Notes under the pieces: model-generated
The model's database searches: none
What the model was told of the DNA's origin: nothing
The model's input: the letters and a program-made list of their open reading frames with translations, nothing else
NCBI GenBank assembly: GCA_963677075.1
Contig: OY781873.1
Location: forward strand, 1,759,715 to 1,823,714
DNA: 64,000 nt
Direction of reading: 5' to 3'
DNA from: an uncultured Sphaerochaeta sp.
GTDB taxonomy: Bacteria; Spirochaetota; Spirochaetia; Sphaerochaetales; Sphaerochaetaceae
Position numbers and translations under genes: made by a program
Shown: positions 40,389 to 64,000 of the stretch, piece by piece
Layout of the letters: the number at the start of each line of letters is the position of its first letter
How positions within the stretch are numbered: the first letter of the stretch is position 1

Positions 40389-41321
40389 ATGTCAAGAAAA
40401 CATATGCGATATCTATCCATTTTCAGTGGGATTGAAGCCGCTACTGTGGCATGGGAACCACTCGGATGGGAACCTGTGGCGTTTGCAGAAGTTGATGAGT
40501 TCCCGAAGGCAGTTCTTGCCCATCACTATCCGAACATTCCTGATTTAGGGGATGTGACCAAAATCACCGAGGAACAGATAAAGGCCCTTGGTCCGATAGA
40601 TCTTGTGGTAGGGGGGTCCCCCTGCCAAGACCTTTCCATTGCAGGGAAGCGAACCGGTTTGAGGGACAAGGATGGGTCGGTTACCCGAAGCGGGTTATTC
40701 GACGAACAGATAAGGATATTTGAGACAGCAAGGAAGAATAATGGATGCAGATACTTACTCTGGGAGAATGTCCCAGGAGCCTTCAGTTCAAACAAAGGGC
40801 GTGACTTTGCCTATGTTATTGACTCTATGGTCGGCGGGGATATTCAGGTCCCCGAAGGGGGATGGAAGAACAGTGGAATCGGCATTTCGCTTGATGGGAG
40901 CAGATGTGTCGAATGGCGCGTGTTGGACGCACAATACTTCGGAGTGCCCCAAAGACGCAGAAGAATCTTCGCTCTCCTCGATACTGGAGCATGGTGGAGT
41001 AGAGAACCGATTCTATTTGAGCGAGAAAGCCTGCAGGGGAATCCTCCGACGGGCACGTGGACGGAAGAGGAAGCTGCCCCCGGAGCTGGAAGGAGCACTG
41101 ATTGCGAAATTATCATCTACGAAAACCATGCAAATGACAGCCGGGTTACCAGATGTGAAGATGGTATAGCCCCTACCTTGAGCAGTCGCATGGGGACCGG
41201 GGGAGGGAATGTCCCACTGGTGATGGCTTCCGGACAGGCAAATGCCGAGATCCTCAAGGACCAATGCCCCACACTCAATTGCACAGATGAACAGCCAATT
41301 TATTGCGGGGTGGAACCATGA
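40389..41321 (+). CDS. C5 cytosine methyltransferase, N-terminal part (motifs I-VIII and TRD)
   Basis: FSGIEAA, GDV, GGSPCQDLS, WENVPG, QRRRRIF; motifs IX-X absent. Confidence 0.9.
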   Translation: MSRKHMRYLSIFSGIEAATVAWEPLGWEPVAFAEVDEFPKAVLAHHYPNIPDLGDVTKITEEQIKALGPIDLVVGGSPCQDLSIAGKRTGLRDKDGSVTRSGLFDEQIRIFETARKNNGCRYLLWENVPGAFSSNKGRDFAYVIDSMVGGDIQVPEGGWKNSGIGISLDGSRCVEWRVLDAQYFGVPQRRRRIFALLDTGAWWSREPILFERESLQGNPPTGTWTEEEAAPGAGRSTDCEIIIYENHANDSRVTRCEDGIAPTLSSRMGTGGGNVPLVMASGQANAEILKDQCPTLNCTDEQPIYCGVEP

Positions 41322-41584
41322 ACATAGTAAGGAGGCTAACCCCAAAGGAGTGTGAGAGGCTCCAAGGCTTCCCAGATGGCTACACAAACATCGCATGGAG
41401 AGGCAAGGATACATCACCCGACGGAAGACGATACAAGGCTCTTGGGAACAGCATGGCTGTACCTGTGATGCGATGGATAGGAAGGCGTATACAGGATTCC
41501 TCTCTTGTTGAGAGAAACGAGCAGGACATAGAGAGAGTGCTGTATGTGTCTCCTGGGGACGAGGAACAGATTTCTCTGTTTTAA
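41318..41584 (+). CDS. C5 cytosine methyltransferase, C-terminal part (motifs IX-X)
   Basis: RRLTPKECERLQGFPD and YKALGNSMAVPV; ATGA overlap. Confidence 0.85.
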   Translation: MNIVRRLTPKECERLQGFPDGYTNIAWRGKDTSPDGRRYKALGNSMAVPVMRWIGRRIQDSSLVERNEQDIERVLYVSPGDEEQISLF

Positions 41585-51982: not shown

Positions 51983-53590
51983 ATGGCTGATGTGTTGATC
52001 AACAACTTCACGAGCGGGGAAGTGTCACCCAAGCTAGGGGGAAGGCCGGACCTGGGAATCTATCACTCCGGTGTCAGTCGGCTTGAGAACTTCCTTGCCA
52101 TGTTGCAGGGAGGTATAACAAGAAGGCCGGGTACTGAATTGCTCGATACCTTGGAAAAGGAATGCAGGCTCATCCCATTCACGATCAGTGTGGATCTCTC
52201 ATTCATCATCGAGCTGCGACCCGAGGAAATTTATATCAGGAACAGTGATGGGACGCTGTACCCGGTCATTGTGTCAGGAGAGGACGCTCTCGGGGGGAAG
52301 AAGGTTCCCTATACCGCTGGAGAGTTGTCGGAGATCCAGTTCACCCAGGATTACGAGACGCTGTATCTGGCACACAGGAACCATGCACCCAGACAGTTGC
52401 GGTACATCGGGGGAAGCTTCACATGGTCCACACTGGTGCCCACTACGGACAACATCTATGACGGGTTGTTCCAAGGTGAGGGCAACTATCCAGGCTGTGT
52501 TGCCTACTGCAGCAACCGGCTCTGGTTTGCCTCCAGCATCAACCATCCCTACAGGTTGTGGGCCTCACGGCCATTCGTGACCAATGACTTCAGGACTTAT
52601 GATGTTGTTGTCTCTGTGGACAAGGTGATCAAGGATCCCCCTTGGCCTGAAGGTTGGGAAGAGGACCAGTCGCTCATCTATGAAGAGAAGACTACCTCCA
52701 GGGAAGTGACAAGTGCCGACAACGCGATGATTCTCGAGGTGGGATCCAACAGGAATGACCGGATTGAGTGGCTCACTGTCGGGAAGAACCTCGTTGTGGG
52801 TACCTCGAGCGGAGAATGGATCATGCCCGGCAACATCAATGCACTGGAACCTTCCATCGTGCAAACATCAGCGTACGGCAGTGCCCCTCTACAGGCTCTG
52901 AACGTGAATGAGGATATCCTGTTCATCCAGAGCGGACGGAAACGTTGCAGGGGCTATGTGATGGCGGATGGTGGTTACAGCAGCCCGGACCTGACTTTCA
53001 CTGCAGACCATATCCTCGCATCGGGGGTCAGGGAGTGGGTTTTCCAACGCATCCCTGAACCAAGGGTATACATGGTCCTGGACAATGGGGACCTTGCAGT
53101 CCTTTCTTACAACAAGCTGTACCAGATCCAAGGATGGGCCAGATGGACATTCAATGGCCGTGTAAAAAGCATCTCTGTCGTGGATACCCCGATGGGGCAG
53201 GATGTGGTGGCTGTCATTGAACGTGGGGGTATCTACCATCTTGAACGTTTCAATGAAGGTTCAAACACGTACAGCGATCAGCACAATACAGACAATCCCA
53301 TTTCATTTGACTCCGTGATGGTCTCTAACAGGTTTGAGACGCAGCTGGAAAGCGGGACCACTATAGGGAAGTCCAAGAAAATCTCCAGGATTGTTTTCCG
53401 GATGCTGAACAGCGAGGGGTTCCAAGCTGGGTACAACGGATTGGAGACATATGAGAAAAGCATCGAGGAAGGGGATGTGATGGTCCGGATCGGTGGCGGA
53501 TATGACAAGGAACTGAAAATGGAAGTGCGGTCAATCGGGGACAAGCCGTTGACGATCCTTGCGATGGTGTATGGATTGGAGGTTGGTTGA
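51983..53590 (+). CDS. Tail tubular protein B / nozzle (T7 gp12, P22 gp10-like)
   Basis: NNFTSGE.SP.L.GR.DL..Y, GG.TRRPGT, YP.....NRL.F. Confidence 0.88.
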   Translation: MADVLINNFTSGEVSPKLGGRPDLGIYHSGVSRLENFLAMLQGGITRRPGTELLDTLEKECRLIPFTISVDLSFIIELRPEEIYIRNSDGTLYPVIVSGEDALGGKKVPYTAGELSEIQFTQDYETLYLAHRNHAPRQLRYIGGSFTWSTLVPTTDNIYDGLFQGEGNYPGCVAYCSNRLWFASSINHPYRLWASRPFVTNDFRTYDVVVSVDKVIKDPPWPEGWEEDQSLIYEEKTTSREVTSADNAMILEVGSNRNDRIEWLTVGKNLVVGTSSGEWIMPGNINALEPSIVQTSAYGSAPLQALNVNEDILFIQSGRKRCRGYVMADGGYSSPDLTFTADHILASGVREWVFQRIPEPRVYMVLDNGDLAVLSYNKLYQIQGWARWTFNGRVKSISVVDTPMGQDVVAVIERGGIYHLERFNEGSNTYSDQHNTDNPISFDSVMVSNRFETQLESGTTIGKSKKISRIVFRMLNSEGFQAGYNGLETYEKSIEEGDVMVRIGGGYDKELKMEVRSIGDKPLTILAMVYGLEVG

Positions 53591-54366
53591 TGGGTGGATT
53601 GTTGGTATTGGGAGCCGTAGCCGGTGGCCTGATGGGTGCCATCAATGGGCGCAACAAGGCTGACCAACGGGAAGCTGAGTACCGGGACAAGCTTGAGGAC
53701 CTGAACAGGCAGAAGACACTGCTGGATACCGGTTACAACCAAGCAAAACAAAGCTACAACCTGGGGGTGGAGCAGGCGAAGGAGGGTACAGCCGAGGCAA
53801 ACACAGAGCTGAACCTCTTGGCAGAGGAGACCCTTGCCAACAGGGACATGGCTCTGGAACAAACTGCAACCGCCGGGTCCATGCAAAGCACCGTGAATGC
53901 GTTGCAATTGGCAACGCTGGAAGTGCAGAACACCCAACAAACGGGTGCGGCTAGGCAACAAGCGGCAACCAGCGGTTTCCGGGGAACGGGTACCGCACAA
54001 GCTCGTGTGGAGAACGCCATCAGTGCAGGAGCTACGGCAAAGGATACAGCTCGGAAGCAGAATCAGATTGCAAGGTACCAGACATACACGAGTGCCTTGA
54101 ACAATTATGTCTCTGCGAACCAGCAGGAAGCAGCATACAGAAGGAAAATCACGCAGAACAACAATGCCTTGGAAAGGGAAATAGGGAAGCTCGACCTGCA
54201 ATTGGCGCAGGCGAAGGAGACCTATGAGCTCAAGGGAGGATACCTCGCAAGTGATATCAACTATCTCAAGACTGAAGGAAGGAAAGCCCTCGATTCAGCG
54301 AGAAAGTGGGACATCATAGGAGGAGGCTTCGGCGGGTTCTTACAGGGCATGGCTATGTTCGCTTAG
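53590..54366 (+). CDS. Internal virion (ejection) protein 1
   Basis: Gly/Ala-rich hydrophobic termini and A/Q-rich coiled coil; first gene after the nozzle. Confidence 0.65.
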   Translation: MGGLLVLGAVAGGLMGAINGRNKADQREAEYRDKLEDLNRQKTLLDTGYNQAKQSYNLGVEQAKEGTAEANTELNLLAEETLANRDMALEQTATAGSMQSTVNALQLATLEVQNTQQTGAARQQAATSGFRGTGTAQARVENAISAGATAKDTARKQNQIARYQTYTSALNNYVSANQQEAAYRRKITQNNNALEREIGKLDLQLAQAKETYELKGGYLASDINYLKTEGRKALDSARKWDIIGGGFGGFLQGMAMFA

Positions 54367-54375
54367 GAGAAATGC

Positions 54376-57300
54376 ATGGGTGTGAAATCATATGTGGCGG
54401 GGCTGAAGGCTGATGCACAGGCAAGTGCCTTGGACACAGGGATGAATTTCCTCGGGGGAATAGCATCACTTGCCAAGTACGACCAAGCCCTTGACCAGGC
54501 AAAGGACAAGGCAGACATCACCCGGGAAACCACCGGTATTGAGGGGCTCAATGAGGAGTTTCTTTACAATCTCCAATACGACAGGGATTATGACAGTTAC
54601 CAAGAGAAGATTGATGCGTATTTTGCAGATATCGAGATGCAGCTTGACGAGAACGAGTTGTTGAGTGATGAGGCAAAACGGACCATCAGGGATGAGTATA
54701 TTCCCGTCTACAAGAAACAAATCTCCACCAATGCGGGCATTCTCAGGACCAAGGGGAAGATGGCTGAGATCGAGGTTGAGGTTGAAGGCCTCGGGTCGGC
54801 ATTGGCCAGTGACAGCTCACTGGATTATGCACAGACCCTGAAAGGGTACAAGGATCATCTCGAGGAGCTCCAGATCTTCAACGAGGCGACCGTCGGGAAG
54901 ATGGTTGATGAGTATGCGTATTCGATTGCACCGGTCAAGGGAATGCAGGTGGTGCAGAAATCATACATGGATCATTATGCCGATGACAGCTTCAGCCTGA
55001 CGGAAAGCATTGACCAGGTTGCCTCTGAGTTGGGGCTTGATGCAAGCCAGAAGAAGGAGATGAAGAAGCAAGTCAGTTCCTGGAAGACTGAATATGACCG
55101 GCAGATGGATACCATGTATGCCTCCCAGCTGGACGAGGTGAACGCTGGGATAGCCCAAGCATATGATGATGGTGAGATCTTTGATGTATCCATGCTTGAC
55201 GGGATGATGGAAGCACTTCCTGCCAAGCATCGGCTTGGAGTATACAAGGCCAAGAAGGATGCATATGCAAACAATGACAAACTTCTGGAAGCATCAATTC
55301 TCAGCATTGCAGACGAATCGAGAATGCCAACTGAGGCAGAATGGAAACAGGTGGAACTGGTCCATGATCCGGAGAAACGCGATGAGTTGGGCTCGACCTT
55401 GCTGGTCGGTTATGGGGAATCCCTTGTCTCTTCCGGGAAAAGCCTATCCGAGGCGAGGGAAGCAATCCAGAGCTATGATGGCCCAGTGTCAGCAAGGACA
55501 AGGACCAAGGCTCTGGCGATGTTCACCAAAGCACAGCTCGACTTGGAGAGTGATGTCACCAAGGTAGCCAAGGATATGCTCGCCAATACGGGCGATCGGA
55601 TCGACACCATTGCAAGGATCCCACAGGACACGCTCACTGATGCGATGGAAACAGCCAAGCCGGAAGCCCCCGCAATCGATGCCTCACAGTTGGGAGAGCG
55701 TGGGGAAGAGTACATAGAGGAGCACATCAGCGAAGTTGCTGAAGTTATTGCGCCCAAGATCTCCATAGGCCTCGGGTTGCCCGGGATTTCTGTGGATGGG
55801 CTGGGCGACCGGGGAGTGCCCTCTTCTCCCGAGGTTGCCAGAGAAGTCGCCAGAATGATCGTTGAGGAGCAGGTTGATGCTGTTCCCCATGAAGGTGTGG
55901 AGAAGCCGCTGGAGGGGCAAGAAGCAGAGCCAGAGCCCGAATCCGAGCTTACATGGGAAGAACCTTGGTGGTACTCCCAGTACTCGGAAAAGCGTGCGGA
56001 GCGCAGGAAGGAAATCGAGGAAGAGCGGGCTGCATATGAGGCAAGGCTTGTAAAACAGGCAGAGAGCGTACGAAAGGAAGCGGGGGTTGTTGATGCCCCC
56101 AAGGAAAGTGGTGCGTATTCGAGACCGCTCCTTGAAAGAGGGATGACACAGGAAGCGCTGGTTTCTAACATGCTCCAGATCATCAAGGACGGTGAAGGGA
56201 AATATCTCACCCAGGAGGAACTCGCCCTCATCCGCAATGATGATATCAGGGAACAAATGATTGAGATGGCCAGTACCAAGGACTCTTTCCTTGTGGACAG
56301 CCCTCTTGCTTTATCCTTCATTGATTCCTTGAGACGTGACCAGAATGTATCTTCGGAGAGCCTCCGCCAGGCGGTTGAGGGATTCGTCAACAACGGTCTG
56401 ATCAAGGCGGAAACTGCGCAGGATAAACGGCTCACCCAGAAGTATGCATTTGCTGAGAACCCCAAGGAGGCGGATCTTCAAGCCTATATCGGGAAGATTG
56501 CCGATGAGGTATTCCCCGTCAAGAAGGGTGAGGTCTACAACTCAAATCGGGATCGGCTGAGAACAACATTGAATGATTCGGCAAACAAGGCAATTGCAAT
56601 GAATCCTGAATTGCTGGGGAGTGACTTTTCCAAGTTGCAGGCACAACTCCAGACGTTTGCCGTCAATAATCTGGCCAAGAACTCCCTCGATGACCTGGAG
56701 AAGGTCACTGACTTGATGGCAAACGGGGATATCTCCAAACGCATTACAAATCTTGAGCACAGCACGGTCTCAACATTCCTGCAGGACGTACAGGCTGGGG
56801 ATTATGACGTTCTGATCAACTATGACGTGGTCCAGCAACCAGAAATCAGAAGCTTGAGGAATGCCGACAAGACAATTGTCCAGGATGCACTCTCCAGGAA
56901 ACTCACTCCATACAAGGATTACCAGGAACTGCTGGATAACGGGACACGGTTTGAACAATTGAAGGTGATGGCGAATGTGTCTTTCCTGATGGCAGGTGGA
57001 GCGCTTGAAAAAGCCCTGATAGGATCCTTTGGCATCAAACCCAGTGACATGAAGGTCATGGGTAAGAATTGGGCTTTTTCGGACCCGAAGGCGGAAGGAT
57101 TGTATTTCATCGCCACTGATGCAGATGCCGAAAAACGAGGCACCTTGGGTTGGGGGATGGCAACAGCAGACTCCGACGGGGTCCACAACCTTGTGATGTT
57201 TGCTGATTACGTCGACCCGCAGCTCACTTATGAGATAGAGACACTCAAGAAACAGGCTGGGGACCCAATGTTCGATTCCAGGAAACAACAAGCGGACCGG

Positions 57301-57510
57301 AACAGGGACAGTGCCTCCTCGGTATTGGGCTTGGGAGGGCTCGGGATCTCCCCTGTAAAGGTCCAAGAGGAGTTGGACGACAAGTACTATGGCGTTCTTG
57401 ATGAGCTCGAGGCGAAACAGAACGAACTCAAGACTCTCACCGACGACATCATGGCATACCGTTACAACCTGATGGGTATGCCTGCAAATACTCTGAGAAA
57501 AAGGCTTTAA
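54376..57510 (+). CDS. Internal virion (ejection) protein 2, 1044 aa
   Basis: Large helical protein in the ejection-gene position; no domain recognised. Confidence 0.65.
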   Translation: MGVKSYVAGLKADAQASALDTGMNFLGGIASLAKYDQALDQAKDKADITRETTGIEGLNEEFLYNLQYDRDYDSYQEKIDAYFADIEMQLDENELLSDEAKRTIRDEYIPVYKKQISTNAGILRTKGKMAEIEVEVEGLGSALASDSSLDYAQTLKGYKDHLEELQIFNEATVGKMVDEYAYSIAPVKGMQVVQKSYMDHYADDSFSLTESIDQVASELGLDASQKKEMKKQVSSWKTEYDRQMDTMYASQLDEVNAGIAQAYDDGEIFDVSMLDGMMEALPAKHRLGVYKAKKDAYANNDKLLEASILSIADESRMPTEAEWKQVELVHDPEKRDELGSTLLVGYGESLVSSGKSLSEAREAIQSYDGPVSARTRTKALAMFTKAQLDLESDVTKVAKDMLANTGDRIDTIARIPQDTLTDAMETAKPEAPAIDASQLGERGEEYIEEHISEVAEVIAPKISIGLGLPGISVDGLGDRGVPSSPEVAREVARMIVEEQVDAVPHEGVEKPLEGQEAEPEPESELTWEEPWWYSQYSEKRAERRKEIEEERAAYEARLVKQAESVRKEAGVVDAPKESGAYSRPLLERGMTQEALVSNMLQIIKDGEGKYLTQEELALIRNDDIREQMIEMASTKDSFLVDSPLALSFIDSLRRDQNVSSESLRQAVEGFVNNGLIKAETAQDKRLTQKYAFAENPKEADLQAYIGKIADEVFPVKKGEVYNSNRDRLRTTLNDSANKAIAMNPELLGSDFSKLQAQLQTFAVNNLAKNSLDDLEKVTDLMANGDISKRITNLEHSTVSTFLQDVQAGDYDVLINYDVVQQPEIRSLRNADKTIVQDALSRKLTPYKDYQELLDNGTRFEQLKVMANVSFLMAGGALEKALIGSFGIKPSDMKVMGKNWAFSDPKAEGLYFIATDADAEKRGTLGWGMATADSDGVHNLVMFADYVDPQLTYEIETLKKQAGDPMFDSRKQQADRNRDSASSVLGLGGLGISPVKVQEELDDKYYGVLDELEAKQNELKTLTDDIMAYRYNLMGMPANTLRKRL

Positions 57511-57519
57511 GGGACTTGT

Positions 57520-60500
57520 ATGACAGATTTTGAAAAATTGATGCAGAATAGTGAAACCATGCGGATGCTCAAGATTGGGAACCCTGAGAGATCAAAGGAT
57601 TTCGGTATCCCCGATTTGCAGGTTGGATTGTTCGATATTGAGCAAAAGACAAGGGAAGGACTTGAACAAATCATCTACAATTCCCCCGATCCTGATGGTG
57701 CTATAGCAAAGCATGATACGGCCATCATGCTTAACAATTTCGGCATTGACATGGAGACCGCAAACAAGATGGCTGAGTTTGGGTTTGCCTCAGCCGCTAC
57801 AGGCATAGATACACGCGAGAAAACCTATTGGGAGGCATTGAAGAACAAGGCACAGGAAGCCTATTGGACCGATATGCGTGGTATCAATACTTCATTGTAC
57901 CGAATGACCGGAGATACGAAGTTTCTTGAGAATGCGGATGAGTACAATGCGAAGGCCTTGAAGGCCCCGTTGTTCGAATCATACGGGGAATTGGGTGACC
58001 TTGTGCTCTCGGGCGTACAGCCTACTGTTTCCTCCGCTAAATTCATTCTCACCAGTGCACTCCTCTCATGGATACCGGGTGGTGTCGCCAACAAGGTGTG
58101 GGGCCCGGCGGTCTCGAAAGTGCTTGCCAAGGGAGGGGGGATTGCCGCAAACGCCGTGAACCTCTTCTCCACAGGATACTCCCAAGCGGGGAATGTGCTG
58201 TATGACGTGATGCAGATGAAGGATGCCGAGGGGAATACACTCCCTTGGGATTTCCCAATAGGCGGGGTGTTGTTCCACAGCCTTGCAGGCATGATGGGGC
58301 TCGTGGAACTTGGAAGCATGGAAATGTTCCCATGGTATCGCCAGCTCAAGACGAAATTCACAGACAGGGAACTGGTCAAACATCTTGAGAGAGGGCTGGC
58401 CAACGCATTCAAGAATTTCACTTTCAAGAGCATTGAAGGTACGGCAGGAGAGTCGGTGGAGGAGGGGATCCAGTCAGGCCTGGAGGATGGGTTCACCAAC
58501 GCCCTGAAAGCGTTGGCGAACAAGGATGGGGCTGACTTCGACCTAATATCCCTGGGAGACAGCGTGAAGAAAGGCGCGAAGGCTTTCCTCGATGCAGGGA
58601 AAAGCATGTTTCTTACCAGCATGCTTTCAGCTGGTATCGGACAGGGTGTCGTTTCAGCATCCCTACGGGCCAAGGCAAAGAAAAACTTCAACACCACCGA
58701 TTCCTCAGTACCTGTGGATAGTTCATTTGTCAGCGTACCGAAAACTGATGTCGAGGAAGAGGGCAAGGAAGAACCAGATTCAAAAATGGATCCCATCAGG
58801 GTTGCAAACGTGGGAACCCATCTTGTCCCTGTGGATAAATCCGAGGCAAGGAAAGCCGCTAAGGCAAGGAAAAAGAATGCAGAGGCAATGGAGGTTATTG
58901 TAGAGGACCTCGCCCCGATGGAAACGGATGATCGCCTGTCCCTGCTCAACCGTGCGGCGATTGCCACGGAAGGAAAGCTTCTGGGTGATGAGAGCATAGC
59001 ATTCGAGGATGGCGATGCCATGAATCGTGCAATTTACCTTCTCGCCCCAAATATCGAATCTGTGGAAGAAAAAGAGAATGGAGCTGACATCATCCTTCGC
59101 GATGAGAATGGAGCAATCAGCAGGGTTCCCCTGCGCGTATTGCAGGAAGGGCAGGAAGGCACCGAACCAGACATCAGTTATTACGATGATCCAGAGTCCC
59201 CATATAGCTTGGCAAGGGTGTCCGAGGAACAAGCTCTTGCATGGGAGGAGCGAGAGACAATCAAGAGAGCATTGGGAGACCTGGCATCCCATACGGAAGG
59301 ACGTATTTCAACTGCAGATCTCGAGAGCAATGTAGATGCAATTAAACTGGTTGCCGACACACTTGGTATCAGCACTGACCAGATGCTCAGGGAGAATCTG
59401 CTGTTCAAGCTCGTGAAGGCATCTCCTGAGGGGGAGCGCGGGTATATCAACAACATCACGGTGGATGGGAAGAAACAATATACGATCCATCTCACCGAAC
59501 GGGCGGATGCTTCCACCCTGCTCCATGAGATCGGGCACTTCTTGCGTGGTACTGCGACAAAGGAACAGATTGCCGAATTTACAGCCCATTACGGGAAGGG
59601 CTCCACTGGTGTCTGGATTGAGGACATCAACAAGGTGGGTGACAGATATGTTGTCGGGGACCAGACATTTGATACATTTGAGGCTGCGTTGAAAGTGGTC
59701 GAGGCGAATGAGGAAGCATTTGCCGATGACTTTGTCAGATACCTACGGACAGGAGAGGCCCCGACAGAAGGTCTCAGCAACATCTTCAGACGAATGAAGG
59801 CTGTGCTCCAACGTTTCGTCCTGGAGTTTGGAGGAGAGCTGGACCCAGAGGTGAAACAGATGTTTGACAACCTGATTGTCTCAAACACCAAGGAAGGGAC
59901 ACCTCCCACATCAGGCCCAGGAGTGGCTCTGAAACAGAAAGCCCCTGCAACAGATTCGTTCCAGTATAGGATGATTGCGAAGAGTGCCCATGAAACATTG
60001 AAGAATCCCGATGGGTCCCTCCGTGTATTTTTCCACGGCAGTGATCGTGCGATAGACGATTACAGCCCAACTCAGCAAGGGCTTATTACTGGTGCCAACA
60101 GTGCAGGCAAGGCATTCTTCTTTACTGATAGCGAGGAGGTTGCACAAGAGTATGCAGACCTTGCAGCTGAGGCCCGTGCAATGCGAGAGGAGCAAGTGCG
60201 TCTTGAGGCCTTGATGGATGATCTGAATGAGGAAAGCGAGCGCATCACCAAGCAGTGGCACAATGATGAGCTTGATACAGAAGAATATGACCAGATGCTT
60301 GAGGTCTTGGAAGAGCAAATCAACCAAGCAGACGAAAAGCTTGCAAGCATAGAGTCCTCACTTGCAACAGGAGATTTCAATGCATTCCCATCAGAGGCAG
60401 ACCCTGTCCTGAACAGGGTGTATCTTGGCGCTACGAATCTTCTGGAAGTAGAGGGAGACGTCGATATTGATGAGACAATCGAGAAGGCTCTACTGGAAGG

Positions 60501-63500
60501 GTACAATGGAGTTTATTTCAGGAATATCAGTGACTCCCCGAGTGGTCTAGAATCAGACACTGTCGCAATCTTTGACCCCGATGATATCTATTCAATTGGA
60601 GAGGACCAGAGTCAGCCGGATCTCTTCCAAACAGCTCCACCAATCGAGAGCGAAGCATTCAAGGCATGGTTCAAGGACAGCAAAGTGGTGGACGAAAACG
60701 GCCTTCCGTTGAAGGTGTATCACGTTACACCCAACGTGTTCGAAGAATTCAAGCCACAGGGATCTATGAACCATTGGTACTATTTTTCTACAAGCAGGAA
60801 GTGGGTCAATAGATTTGCCAAGGTAAGGTCATACTCCAACCCAATTGTTATGCAGAATTATCTCAGCGTTCAGAATCCCCTGACCCTCAGAGGAAGGCAT
60901 ACATCACTGGAGTGGATTGACATCCTGAAAGGGCACGGAATAACAGTCAATGAGGAATGGTTCCCCGGAAGCGGGGCAAAGAATCCAGAGAAAGTGCAGT
61001 TCTGGGTAATCCTCAGATATGACAATAGTGGTGAACGTGGAGCCCACATAATGCAGGGTATGAAGGATGCCGGATATGATGGGTTACATATTGATGACAT
61101 GCAACACGGGGGTGTTGATGGGGATTCCTGGGTTGTAATGGACCCATCCCAGATCAAGGCTGTAAACAATTATGGGACATGGGATTCCTCCAACCCCAAT
61201 ATCCTATTTCAGCAAGCACCCCCTATTAATAGCGAAGCATTCAAGCAATGGTTCGGTAAAAGCAAGGTCGCGGATGAAAATGGGAATCCGATTGAATTGC
61301 TGCATGGAAGCCCGAACATGTTCGATGATTTCATTCGGACACAGGATAATGACAACGGATATCTGGGTGCTGGGTATTATTTTACCGGGGACAAGGGTAT
61401 AGCGCAGACCTATGCTACAAAAAACAATATAGGATATATCTACCATGCATATTTGAAAATGGATAATCCTCTTCGATATGATCAGGAATGGGACAAAGAA
61501 TGGAGTAAAATTAGAGACGAAATTGTAAAAGAGAACCCAAGAGTGGAGCAATATTCCTCGGAGTTTGGGAAGTTGCTTGCAGAGAAAATCCAATCCTATG
61601 GGTATGACGGGGTGCTTGATCTGCGCAATGGGGAGGTTGTGGAAGCTGTTGTGTTCAGGAATGAACAGATCCGTATAGCATCGGTTGAACCCTACAGTAT
61701 TGAATCAGTCCCAAGGGGTCCTTTGTTCCAGGAGTCCTCAGCTGACGATCGTTATTTCAAGGCGCTGGAGGCAGGCGACGAAACCACAGCCCAGCGGATC
61801 GTGGATGAAATGGCCCGAAGACGAGGGTACATCTCCTCCAATGATTTCAGGATGCAACATCAGGCTCCGAACAGCAAGGATAACTTCAGTGCCAATCTGG
61901 CTAGGCTTGATGAATCAGGGTTATTGCCAAAGGACTATTGGGATCACCCCCGCTGGTATGCAGGGGATACTGAGATGTATTCATTCTGGAAGGTAAGGTC
62001 TGCTCTTGATCGGCTGAAGAAGAATGGCAAAGCCAGGATACGTCTCTATCGTGCAATTCCCAAAAATGTAAGAGAGGATTGGTTCAGAAACGGGGACTGG
62101 GTCACGCCTGATGTTGAATATGCCAGGAACGAAGGCAGGATGATTCCGGGGGGATACAGGATCATCAGCCACTCTGTACCGTTGGAGCATGTATGGTGGG
62201 ATGTGAATTCCATCGCAGAGCTGGGATATGATGATGGCAGGACTTATGCATACCGCAACACCAAGAACAATAGAAAATTGTTTGATCTCATCGTGCGTGA
62301 TGAGGATGGGAACATTGTACCCCCTTCAAAGCGGTTCAACTATCGCAGTGACACGTTGTACCAGAAGTCTGATCCATTGCTGAAGGCTTATCGTCATTGG
62401 GAACCGGAGATTACCTCTACCGGCATCATCAAGGGCGCACCTGAGTGGGTCAAGACCAGAAAAGATTTCAACCATATGATGCAACAGATGCGCAAATTCC
62501 TGCGTGAAGGTGTCTCAGGAAGGTACTGGTATGAGCAGAGTGCTGATGCGGTCTGGAGAATGATGCAGGGGGATCCTGACAAGGTGAGGAAGTTCATCCA
62601 GCTTCTGGCTATCTATTCCCCAAACAACAATGTACCGGGAAATACACTGATGGCTATCAGGGCCTTCTCACATTGGGCGGCTGGTCTCCCTGAGAAGGAT
62701 CTCAGTTCCGGTATGAGTGAGCTTGACAACAAGGCAAAACGGGCACTGTACCATGGGGAGGATTGGGAAGGCAGGAAGACCAATTCTTTCTATATCAATC
62801 TCATGTATGAACTCGTAAGGAAATATCCTGAGGCATTCCCTGATATGGAATTGTCGGATGTCGCCACGATGGACCTCTGGATGGCAAGGGCTTTCGGTTA
62901 CATCGTAGAGGCCTACTCCAACGACAAGGGATCCGGTAAATACTCTTTCAGTGAGAATATCACCAGGCGCCTTGCCGCAGAGATGAATGCAAAGCTGGGA
63001 CCACTCGAGGACCCTTGGACCCCGCACCAGGTGCAGGCGGCGATTTGGTCCTCAATGAAGACTCGTTATGAGTTGAATCATGTAAAAGCTTCTACAAACA
63101 AGGAAAGTCTCAGACTTGGGTATTCGAAATTGAATTCCAAGGGCAAGGTGGAGAATCCTACTTCTGGAGAGAACGAAAAGCTTCACAAGCAATTGTGGAG
63201 AAGCTTTGCCGTAAACAAGGCTGGCACGAGTGCCGAGATAACCAAGGCGGTCGAGGAAACAGGATTCTCATTCAGTGAGGCAATCTATGATTCTTCCCAG
63301 GTGGTGACATGGGAGTCGATTCCCTCTGAATCCACAGGGGCGGATATAACGCACGCATCGATGGCCACAAAGAGACAGTTTACCCGTGAGGCATTGTCCT
63401 TGATCATGGATGTCGAGGGGAATGACCTTCTTGCCTCGATGCTCGGGGTGCCGATTAATTATTCAATATCCAGTGAAGGAGCCTACGCGGGGAGCGTTTC

Positions 63501-64000
63501 CCCGAATATTGTGACATCCTTGTTCCCCGCAAGGGAGAAAGGGAAGGAAGTGACTTTCGATACTGTCAGGAAGTATGCGAAAGCAATTCAGTATATCTAC
63601 AAGCAAGATGCAGTTCCGTTTTTCAAGCCCAACTCCGTACCGTTGGTTTCCAAGACTGCTAGGGAAGAAATGCAATTCAAGGTGGTGAGGTACAGCCGGG
63701 GCAGGGACGGCAGCATATTGAAAGAAACCACAATCCCAAAGAGCAAGGTGGAAACACAAGCCGAAGCGGAACAAGTAAGGGAAGATTATCTTGCAAAGAA
63801 TCCAGGTTTGTCCCCGGAAGATGTGGCTGTGCATGGAGGGAAATACGCCAGAGCTGTTGTATTAACCTTCAAAAACAAACTTCATGATGCTATACTTAAT
63901 GAAGTCCTTGAGGAGTTGCAACAGTACCTTGGTGAGGATGCTGGGTATACCCGTACAGGGAGCAACGAGATCATCGTAGTCAACTATCGGGATGATTTTA
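57520..64000 (+). CDS. Giant polyvalent internal virion protein (>2160 aa, 3'-truncated by the window)
   Basis: Manual translation: no stop from ATG 57520 to base 64000; HEIGH zincin, three H-type ART modules, one R-type ART-like module, HhH-GPD-like domain. Confidence 0.9.
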   Translation, partial: MTDFEKLMQNSETMRMLKIGNPERSKDFGIPDLQVGLFDIEQKTREGLEQIIYNSPDPDGAIAKHDTAIMLNNFGIDMETANKMAEFGFASAATGIDTREKTYWEALKNKAQEAYWTDMRGINTSLYRMTGDTKFLENADEYNAKALKAPLFESYGELGDLVLSGVQPTVSSAKFILTSALLSWIPGGVANKVWGPAVSKVLAKGGGIAANAVNLFSTGYSQAGNVLYDVMQMKDAEGNTLPWDFPIGGVLFHSLAGMMGLVELGSMEMFPWYRQLKTKFTDRELVKHLERGLANAFKNFTFKSIEGTAGESVEEGIQSGLEDGFTNALKALANKDGADFDLISLGDSVKKGAKAFLDAGKSMFLTSMLSAGIGQGVVSASLRAKAKKNFNTTDSSVPVDSSFVSVPKTDVEEEGKEEPDSKMDPIRVANVGTHLVPVDKSEARKAAKARKKNAEAMEVIVEDLAPMETDDRLSLLNRAAIATEGKLLGDESIAFEDGDAMNRAIYLLAPNIESVEEKENGADIILRDENGAISRVPLRVLQEGQEGTEPDISYYDDPESPYSLARVSEEQALAWEERETIKRALGDLASHTEGRISTADLESNVDAIKLVADTLGISTDQMLRENLLFKLVKASPEGERGYINNITVDGKKQYTIHLTERADASTLLHEIGHFLRGTATKEQIAEFTAHYGKGSTGVWIEDINKVGDRYVVGDQTFDTFEAALKVVEANEEAFADDFVRYLRTGEAPTEGLSNIFRRMKAVLQRFVLEFGGELDPEVKQMFDNLIVSNTKEGTPPTSGPGVALKQKAPATDSFQYRMIAKSAHETLKNPDGSLRVFFHGSDRAIDDYSPTQQGLITGANSAGKAFFFTDSEEVAQEYADLAAEARAMREEQVRLEALMDDLNEESERITKQWHNDELDTEEYDQMLEVLEEQINQADEKLASIESSLATGDFNAFPSEADPVLNRVYLGATNLLEVEGDVDIDETIEKALLEGYNGVYFRNISDSPSGLESDTVAIFDPDDIYSIGEDQSQPDLFQTAPPIESEAFKAWFKDSKVVDENGLPLKVYHVTPNVFEEFKPQGSMNHWYYFSTSRKWVNRFAKVRSYSNPIVMQNYLSVQNPLTLRGRHTSLEWIDILKGHGITVNEEWFPGSGAKNPEKVQFWVILRYDNSGERGAHIMQGMKDAGYDGLHIDDMQHGGVDGDSWVVMDPSQIKAVNNYGTWDSSNPNILFQQAPPINSEAFKQWFGKSKVADENGNPIELLHGSPNMFDDFIRTQDNDNGYLGAGYYFTGDKGIAQTYATKNNIGYIYHAYLKMDNPLRYDQEWDKEWSKIRDEIVKENPRVEQYSSEFGKLLAEKIQSYGYDGVLDLRNGEVVEAVVFRNEQIRIASVEPYSIESVPRGPLFQESSADDRYFKALEAGDETTAQRIVDEMARRRGYISSNDFRMQHQAPNSKDNFSANLARLDESGLLPKDYWDHPRWYAGDTEMYSFWKVRSALDRLKKNGKARIRLYRAIPKNVREDWFRNGDWVTPDVEYARNEGRMIPGGYRIISHSVPLEHVWWDVNSIAELGYDDGRTYAYRNTKNNRKLFDLIVRDEDGNIVPPSKRFNYRSDTLYQKSDPLLKAYRHWEPEITSTGIIKGAPEWVKTRKDFNHMMQQMRKFLREGVSGRYWYEQSADAVWRMMQGDPDKVRKFIQLLAIYSPNNNVPGNTLMAIRAFSHWAAGLPEKDLSSGMSELDNKAKRALYHGEDWEGRKTNSFYINLMYELVRKYPEAFPDMELSDVATMDLWMARAFGYIVEAYSNDKGSGKYSFSENITRRLAAEMNAKLGPLEDPWTPHQVQAAIWSSMKTRYELNHVKASTNKESLRLGYSKLNSKGKVENPTSGENEKLHKQLWRSFAVNKAGTSAEITKAVEETGFSFSEAIYDSSQVVTWESIPSESTGADITHASMATKRQFTREALSLIMDVEGNDLLASMLGVPINYSISSEGAYAGSVSPNIVTSLFPAREKGKEVTFDTVRKYAKAIQYIYKQDAVPFFKPNSVPLVSKTAREEMQFKVVRYSRGRDGSILKETTIPKSKVETQAEAEQVREDYLAKNPGLSPEDVAVHGGKYARAVVLTFKNKLHDAILNEVLEELQQYLGEDAGYTRTGSNEIIVVNYRDDF

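Follow-up and report, generated by a model that had tools for sequence, protein, structure and literature searches.

DUF7178, a candidate HhH-GPD-like glycosylase domain in a giant prophage protein from an uncultured Sphaerochaeta

The locus and the DUF7178 domain

We analyzed a stretch of 64,000 nucleotides from the genome of an uncultured Sphaerochaeta sp. (GenBank assembly GCA_963677075.1, contig OY781873.1, positions 1,759,715 to 1,823,714 of the forward strand). Further in this study it is called the window; the source is a 3.26-Mb single-contig genome. According to the listing of open reading frames (ORFs) and their translations, positions 57520–63999 of the plus strand are a single open frame without a stop codon. 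This frame is the beginning of a prophage gene (L002:1-12138) encoding a protein of 4045 amino acids (aa), a polyvalent protein in the position of an ejection protein. The window contains its first 2160 residues (57520..64000, +), and the ORF extends 5.7 kb past the window. Residues 1621–1870 (62380..63129, +) are a DUF7178 domain (Pfam PF23802), all-alpha and glycosylase-like. The reading that we favor, with moderate confidence, is that DUF7178 belongs to the HhH-GPD superfamily as a phage-specific and highly divergent branch with AGOG, Ogg2 and OGG1 as its nearest relatives, and that it would serve as an injected glycosylase/apurinic-apyrimidinic (AP) lyase module.

The excised domain matched PF23802 with 32.8 bits (cut-off 27) and E 8.4e-8 over profile positions 32–190 of 193. 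With the excised domain as the query, a word-index search for homologues yielded just two proteins, and the region of the whole protein was used as the query instead. The alignment of the domain contains 46 copies from giant proteins, which are 30–58% identical to the window copy and all of which match PF23802. When 1.84 billion representative proteins (clusters at 50% identity) were searched exhaustively with HMMER, DUF7178 was found in 925 clusters at E<=0.001, 126 of them at E<=1e-30. Nearly all of these are giant phage proteins of 1000–5000 aa, in which the position of the domain varies. The window domain had no match in 50,697 phage records by tblastn even at E 0.1, and the giant gene had none in phage records by megablast.

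The first-pass annotation of this DNA had proposed an HhH-GPD glycosylase-like domain and quoted a set of motifs. All of them are in frame (GRYWYEQS, LLAIYSPNNNVPGN, GRKTNSFYINL, ATMDLWMARAFG, RRLAAE, WTPHQVQAAIW), and the two residues singled out as catalytic are encoded where it placed them, Lys1753 by AAG at 62776–62778 and Asp1785 by GAC at 62872–62874. The proposed span of 62400–63070 lies within the domain, the true extent of which is slightly larger at both ends. The description of the domain as fused behind ADP-ribosyltransferase (ART) modules is also correct: of the four ART-PolyVal modules three precede DUF7178, with an unrelated module of some 150 aa in between, and one follows it past the end of the window.

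Conserved residues and their predicted roles

Invariant in the 46-sequence alignment are W1670, Y1671, S1700, N1708, G1751, K1753, F1757, T1783, D1785, W1787, Y1808, Q1839, A1840 and W1843. K1753 and D1785 are retained in 46 of 46 giant-protein copies and in 117 of 117 stand-alone copies of the domain. Across these 163 sequences about 17 residues are invariant, including the lysine, the aspartate and residues of the putative pocket. Given 925 clusters and this invariance of the motif residues, the motifs are beyond chance. So many invariant polar and aromatic residues are typical of an enzyme.

The W-Y-E-x-S motif (62527..62541, +; W1670, Y1671, E1672, S1674) is situated at the start of a helix (helix 50–61 of the structural model). 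Its W and Y are invariant, and E and S are conserved in at least 90% of the 46 sequences; in a low-confidence alignment it falls near the DPQY motif of AGOG, which holds Gln31. The next motif, A-I-Y-S-P-x-x-x-V-x-x-N (62608..62643, +), contains the invariant S1700 and N1708 and was aligned by hhalign with S-x-Q-T of the EndoIII family. The motif G-R-K-T-x-x-F-x-x-N (62770..62799, +; G, K and F invariant) holds the predicted nucleophile Lys1753 and Phe1757. In the AlphaFold2 (AF2) model Lys1753 opens the second helix of a helix-loop-helix (helix 113–125, loop, helix 132–148). It is located two residues past G1751, is invariant in the 163 sequences, and was aligned with AGOG Lys140 and with the lysine of EndoIII GVGxKTA.

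The predicted catalytic Asp1785 belongs to T-x-D-x-W-x-x-R (62866..62889, +; T, D and W invariant) and was aligned with AGOG Asp172 and the VD motif of EndoIII. In the AF2 model it caps the following helix, 166–172, which begins right after it. The lysine and the aspartate are 32 residues apart in the window copy and 18 apart in minimal members; we take 18 to be the spacing in EndoIII and Ogg2 as well. The last motif, W-x-P-x-Q-x-Q-A-x-x-W-x-x-x-K-x-R (63016..63066, +), forms a late helix with the predicted base-recognition residue Gln1839 and the predicted stacking residue Trp1843. Q1839, A1840 and W1843 are invariant, and Q1839 and W1843 are on one face of the modeled helix. The pair has the arrangement of the OGG clade, Q or D at position i and a stacking F or W at i+4.

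In one co-linear automatic alignment K1753, F1757, D1785, Q1839 and W1843 were paired with K140, F144, D172, D218 and W222, respectively, of AGOG from Pyrobaculum aerophilum (Pa-AGOG, PDB 1XQO/1XQP, Pfam PF09171). The Pa-AGOG numbering was checked against PDB 1xqo. On this alignment, five invariant DUF7178 residues fall on five functional residues of AGOG with the i/i+4 spacing kept. Lys140 and Asp172 are the catalytic pair of AGOG and superimpose on the pairs of OGG1 and Ogg2; Trp222 stacks on 8-oxoguanine (8-oxoG) and is equivalent to Trp198 in Ogg2 and Phe319 in hOGG1; Asp218 reads the base, as do Asp194 in Ogg2 and Gln315 in hOGG1; and the AGOG hairpin is non-canonical (reviewed by Faucher, Doublie and Jia, PMC3397491).

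AGOG is the best match of the DUF7178 family in both structure and profile comparisons. The two share the co-linear Lys, Lys+4 Phe, Asp and [D/Q]-x-x-x-W helix as well as a non-canonical hairpin, and the window copy also has the 32-residue Lys-to-Asp spacing of AGOG. There is no significant sequence similarity between them; DUF7178 has Gln in place of Asp218 and, in the N-terminal lobe, W-Y-E-x-S in place of DPQY. Further, AGOG is a cellular repair gene, whereas DUF7178 is phage-borne, patchy and here embedded in a 4045-aa protein.

Profile comparisons

The family of the window domain and the 117 stand-alone members matched each other in hhalign with probability 99.4% and E 1e-21. For comparison with established glycosylases, 31 AGOG genes were collected from archaeal genomes, which were reached with a 16S probe. 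One of these genes is Pa-AGOG, identical to PDB 1xqo over the stretches checked. The profile comparisons covered AGOG and EndoIII; hhalign was run without secondary-structure scoring, and the merged DUF7178 profile contained 163 sequences. Decoys were 40-column reversed blocks and real-family controls, as 12-column block-shuffles were judged too lenient.

The stand-alone DUF7178 profile scored 28.9 against AGOG (P 0.0025). The merged profile scored 26.2 against AGOG over 76 columns (P 0.0059) and 24.6 against EndoIII over 86 columns (P 0.013). Shuffled and reversed decoys had mean scores of 13–15, with a maximum of 17.4 for the merged and 19.4 for the stand-alone profile. The domain that follows DUF7178 in the giant protein (the partner domain), taken as an unrelated control, scored 11.8 against EndoIII (P 0.81). 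AGOG and EndoIII, both true HhH-GPD families, scored 22.5 against each other (P 0.036), which we used as a yardstick for the little sequence signal left in this superfamily. Judged by profile score, DUF7178 is at least as near to AGOG and EndoIII as these two are to each other. Its own scores are sub-significant because the HhH-GPD superfamily is so divergent, the AGOG–EndoIII score being lower still.

Between DUF7178 and EndoIII/Nth (PF00730) hhalign paired S-P-Q with S-x-Q-T, G-x-K-T with G-V-G-x-K-T-A, and V-T-V-D with a-I-x-V-D. By eye, Asn at Lys+7 and Arg at Asp+5 presumably also match E. coli Nth. DUF7178 differs in having no [4Fe-4S] cysteine cluster and in escaping detection by PF00730. 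Compared with 19 EndoIII sequences from the host clade, the 46-sequence alignment gave just GRKT on GRKT, over 15 columns and with probability 1%. PDB chain sequences, searched with the domain sequence itself and with two profiles, gave no significant match.

Structure comparisons

AF2 modeled the window domain confidently (pLDDT 94.7, pTM 0.90), as an all-alpha structure of eleven helices. Among predicted viral structures this model matched uncharacterised phage proteins, including stand-alone ones of 200 aa; the model of a haloarchaeal virus EndoIII was matched at just TM 0.3 and E 1.2. We also modeled a 194-aa stand-alone DUF7178 member (P0217; pLDDT 97.3). In the PDB this model is matched best by HhH-GPD enzymes of the OGG clade, which account for six of the 11 top hits. 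They include Pa-AGOG 1xqp (probability 0.97, TM 0.53/0.43, E 0.18), mouse OGG1 (0.77, 0.44/0.29, E 0.31), the P. furiosus AGOG homologue 1xg7 (0.54, 0.41/0.35, E 0.64), MjOgg 3knt (0.80, 0.50/0.48, E 0.77) and SsOgg 3fhg (0.63, 0.52/0.50, E 1.7); human OGG1 entries are also among the matches. These are weak matches, with root-mean-square deviations of 6–11 Å and E-values of 0.18–1.7. Nevertheless, the enrichment of the model's PDB matches for one clade appears striking despite the weak E-values.

Ogg2 (MjaOgg 3KNT/3FHF, SsOgg 3FHG) matched the stand-alone member with TM about 0.5 over about 200 residues. Stand-alone DUF7178 also resembles Ogg2 and OGG1 (hOGG1 1EBM) in its length of about 200 aa, in the Lys-to-Asp spacing of 18 seen in minimal members, and in the reading residue at i and aromatic residue at i+4 (Asp194/Trp198, Gln315/Phe319). 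It differs from them in lacking the canonical G-h-G hairpin, and the Foldseek E-values are 0.3–1.7. An N-terminal extension and longer loops probably explain why the window copy has no OGG matches; its Lys-to-Asp distance, for instance, is 32 rather than 18. The window domain is linked to the superfamily through its homology to the stand-alone members.

Several observations weigh against the HhH-GPD assignment. In Foldseek the window model had no PDB match at E<=0.001; its best E-value was 0.67 with TM below 0.2, and the top 50 matches contained no HhH-GPD protein, the best being unrelated helical proteins. For the stand-alone model the E-value is at best 0.18, and no single score is significant by the usual standards. 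The hhalign probability of DUF7178 with AGOG or EndoIII is at most 12%; the 46-sequence alignment alone gave nothing against either; the unrelated partner domain scored 20.0 against AGOG (P 0.089); and a hidden Markov model search of PDB sequences reached AGOG at E 1.5 only. A genome-wide search with Pfam HhH-GPD (PF00730) yielded four host genes and did not match the DUF7178 locus. The canonical L-P-G-h-G hairpin is not conserved in either the 46- or the 117-sequence alignment, where solely its last Gly (G1751) is kept, nor is the Gly/Pro-rich loop, including its Pro. The role of AGOG Phe144 is one that we presume, packaging and injection are read from gene order alone, and a literature search found no paper naming DUF7178.

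Some of these observations favor the main rival explanation, which we regard as unlikely: DUF7178 would have an all-alpha enzyme fold that is new and has no relation to HhH-GPD, with other chemistry, for example that of a nucleotide or signaling-molecule hydrolase, and its K...D...Q..W likeness would be convergent or due to chance. In its favor are the lack of a PDB neighbor for the window model, the sub-threshold character of every HhH-GPD link, the missing canonical hairpin and the control score of 20. Three results argue against a new fold. The top PDB matches of the compact member are concentrated in the OGG clade, with TM near 0.5 and probabilities reaching 0.97; one automatic, co-linear alignment pairs five invariant residues with five residues that are functional in AGOG; and DUF7178 outscores the AGOG–EndoIII pair against each of AGOG and EndoIII. 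The first-pass claim of an HhH-GPD-like domain with a hairpin lysine, a catalytic aspartate and a closing Q..W helix is thus partly supported, by weak but converging signs of remote homology, although no score is conventionally significant. The fold match that it predicted was obtained with AGOG, Ogg2 and OGG1 for the stand-alone model but not for the window domain itself, so that its own refutation test had a mixed outcome.

Partner domain and ADP-ribosyltransferase modules

The constant partner of DUF7178 covers residues 1871 to about 2260 (L002:5611-6795 in the gene; it starts in the window at 63130..64000, +, and continues beyond it). A homologue of residues 1870–2080 directly follows DUF7178 in 172 of 210 giant proteins, and therefore the two form a conserved unit; the second half of the partner (residues 2080–2280) is present in 93 of the 210. 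The partner domain had no match in Pfam, PHROG or PDB. As it contains few invariant polar residues, it is probably a non-catalytic half beside the glycosylase-like domain.

The regular presence of this partner downstream, together with the non-canonical hairpin, is what would be expected if DUF7178 had the HhH-GPD-like shape but acted only as a binder of DNA or AP sites, or only as an AP/deoxyribosephosphate lyase, anchoring or guiding its partner on the incoming DNA. Many modules of polyvalent proteins bind DNA (PMC5512222), which is also consistent with such a role. Against it are the approximately 17 residues invariant across 163 diverse sequences, among them the presumed nucleophile Lys1753, Asp1785 and residues of the putative pocket, and the partner itself, which with its few conserved polar residues looks like the non-catalytic half. 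We consider this explanation improbable.

The first-pass annotation had taken the neighboring ART modules as a pointer to removal of ADP-ribosyl adducts and had proposed their co-occurrence with the domain as a check. An ART was found in 38 of 106 DUF7178 proteins by precomputed Pfam assignments or in 52 of 210 by phmmer, that is, in a minority, and in no fixed order, 31 being upstream and 31 downstream of DUF7178; the constant partner is a different domain. Hence this suggestion is not borne out. It corresponds to a rival explanation in which an HhH-GPD glycosylase is coupled to the ARTs and removes ADP-ribosylated bases installed by a defense system or by the ARTs of the same protein. Such coupling would agree with four ART-PolyVal modules on the same polypeptide and with an OGG-like pocket that suggests a guanine-type base; DarT-type enzymes ADP-ribosylate guanine and thymine in DNA. 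In addition to the co-occurrence counts, the stand-alone DUF7178 genes in phage contigs speak against it, as they had no ART within the 5-kb flanks examined. Moreover, ART is common in polyvalent proteins generally: it is their commonest protein-modifying enzymatic domain and is predicted to modify proteins (PMC5512222). ART-coupled excision therefore seems very improbable to us.

Stand-alone members and distribution

Gp151 of Mycobacterium phage prophiGD54-2, 194 aa long, matches PF23802 end to end (E 4e-62). It was found via a more typical family member and was the sole phage record matched. In GenBank gp151 is named 'N-glycosylase/DNA lyase' and its homologue in phage Kumao 'N-glycosylase'; these are annotators' labels, not experiments. 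Glycosylase names for some members are thus already on record, and the support that sequence comparison lends them is remote homology.

In phage contigs the stand-alone DUF7178 genes adjoin small early genes. The neighbors of one such gene (contig L187) are NUDIX, a nucleoside deoxyribosyltransferase-like gene, GIY-YIG and RuvC. On two metagenomic phage contigs (L188:7566-8597 and L189:6454-7485) DUF7178 is situated about 2 kb from a gene with solo ArdC-N and MPTase-PolyVal. Stand-alone DUF7178 genes are therefore placed in an early, DNA-handling neighborhood. The distribution of the family is patchy: DUF7178 is present in two of 41 related genomes and in none of 14 control genomes, while HhH-GPD proper was found in every genome examined. 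The family is thus accessory.

Other modules of the giant protein

Residues 669–673 (59524..59538, +) form a HEIGH motif of the zincin-type metallopeptidases, seen directly in the sequence, and residues 637–788 around it match phrog_9880. By analogy with polyvalent proteins (PMC5512222), this region may act as a protease. It is followed by three ART-PolyVal modules at about residues 820–1402 (59977..61725, +; PF18760, E 2e-44 in three stretches). Each of the three closes with an L-F-Q motif, at residues 1035, 1229 and 1402.

More generally, L-[FY]-Q recurs at module ends: in the window at 60622–60633, 61204–61215, 61723–61734 and 62356–62367, and further in the protein (L002) at residues 2262–2265 and 2886–2889. 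The string ...FDP.NP.[IV]L[FY]Q is the tail of ART-PolyVal in other giant proteins. These motifs may be cleavage sites of the HEIGH zincin. L[FY]Q was rejected as a general boundary before DUF7178, since it is present upstream in 13% of homologues versus 11% in the background.

The module that separates DUF7178 from the third ART (about 150 aa, residues 1426–1575; 61795..62244, +) matches phrog_2579, 'ParB C-terminal domain', with E 2.5e-21 at profile positions 324–465 of 472; no Pfam family matched it. It was also considered as a partner of DUF7178 and rejected, being common to just two of the 210 DUF7178 giants. The C-terminal 1885 residues, encoded past the window (L002:6481-12138), contain the fourth ART-PolyVal, a RadC-like JAB domain, a long coiled coil with weak tape-measure-like matches, and a hydrophobic C-terminal region.

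A HEIGH zincin motif, four ART-PolyVal modules, DUF7178 and a RadC JAB domain in one protein encoded among virion genes make it a polyvalent protein, the same kind of multi-domain giant as those surveyed by Iyer, Burroughs, Anand, de Souza and Aravind (2017, PMC5512222). The likeness extends to its homologues, which contain LPD22, LPD23, LPD38, InPase, RelA-SpoT and zeta-toxin domains. The survey differs in that a glycosylase is never mentioned among the 131 domains catalogued.

Prophage context

The genes upstream of the giant gene are, in order, terminase, T7-type portal, scaffold, GP7-type capsid protein, Bbp16, and tail tubular A and B. Between tail tubular B and the giant gene are two ORFs in the gp14 and gp15 positions, at 53587–54366 (259 aa) and 54376–57510 (1044 aa); no Pfam or PHROG family matched either of them. 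In this podovirus-like prophage the giant gene thus takes the place that the ejection protein gp16 has in T7. Neither Pfam nor PHROG gave a match to a gp16 or SLT family, so the likeness of the protein to gp16 is one of gene position only. Because of this position, the giant protein is probably packaged in virions and delivered into the cell along with the phage DNA. In a scan of the prophage early genes for hypermodification genes, only a C5 cytosine DNA methylase (40389–41584; PF00145, E 5e-29), SSB, NinG/HNH, AAA_24 and a PD-(D/E)XK nuclease were found; the methylase was the sole DNA-modification gene among the early genes scanned.

The gp16 position raises the question of whether DUF7178 could be the peptidoglycan-cutting module of a gp16-type protein, that is, a lytic transglycosylase or a lysozyme-like domain. 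No lysozyme domain was recognized elsewhere in the protein, and an E-x-S is conserved near the start of DUF7178, both of which would fit. However, goose-type lysozyme ranks only 34 and 41 among the matches of the stand-alone model, with E above 3 and TM about 0.15; neither SLT nor lysozyme families were matched in Pfam or among PDB sequences; and the stand-alone homologues are found among early DNA-metabolism genes, not among lysis or tail genes. With neither fold nor family support, this explanation was rejected as barely credible.

Discussion

If DUF7178 is a divergent relative of AGOG, Ogg2 and OGG1, as we favor, the invariant residues suggest how it may work. The domain would bind DNA through its non-canonical helix-loop-helix. 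A purine-like base would be flipped into a pocket that Phe1757 and Trp1843 close and in which Gln1839 reads the base; the OGG-like character of the pocket hints at a base of the guanine type. Lys1753, aided by Asp1785, would then displace the base via a Schiff base, which would make the domain a glycosylase with AP-lyase activity. In doing so it would work together with the downstream partner domain. A phage glycosylase/AP-lyase with an amine nucleophile and a Schiff base is known in T4 endonuclease V (DenV). That enzyme is a free protein, not a section of a virion or ejection protein, with a small unrelated fold, uses its N-terminal amine as the nucleophile and is specific for pyrimidine dimers.

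A bolder and rather unlikely extension is that DUF7178 and its partner do not repair DNA but form an injected weapon in two parts, which acts by base excision and recognizes a specific guanine-type modification once inside the cell. It would remove an adduct placed on the incoming phage DNA by a host defense, or excise a host-specific base and thereby nick and disable the host chromosome. If this were true, base excision would be a widespread phage strategy of early infection, spread over 925 protein clusters.

The glycosylase assignment, if it holds, would turn a large phage-specific family of 925 clusters into a new branch of the HhH-GPD superfamily. Base excision would then join the predicted repertoire of functions that phages inject. 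A literature search found no description of an ejected or polyvalent protein that contains a glycosylase. The assignment would also raise the question of which base an incoming phage needs excised, and from whose DNA. Hosts are already known to have defense glycosylases that target modified phage DNA; DUF7178 would be their phage-side counterpart, mirroring them.

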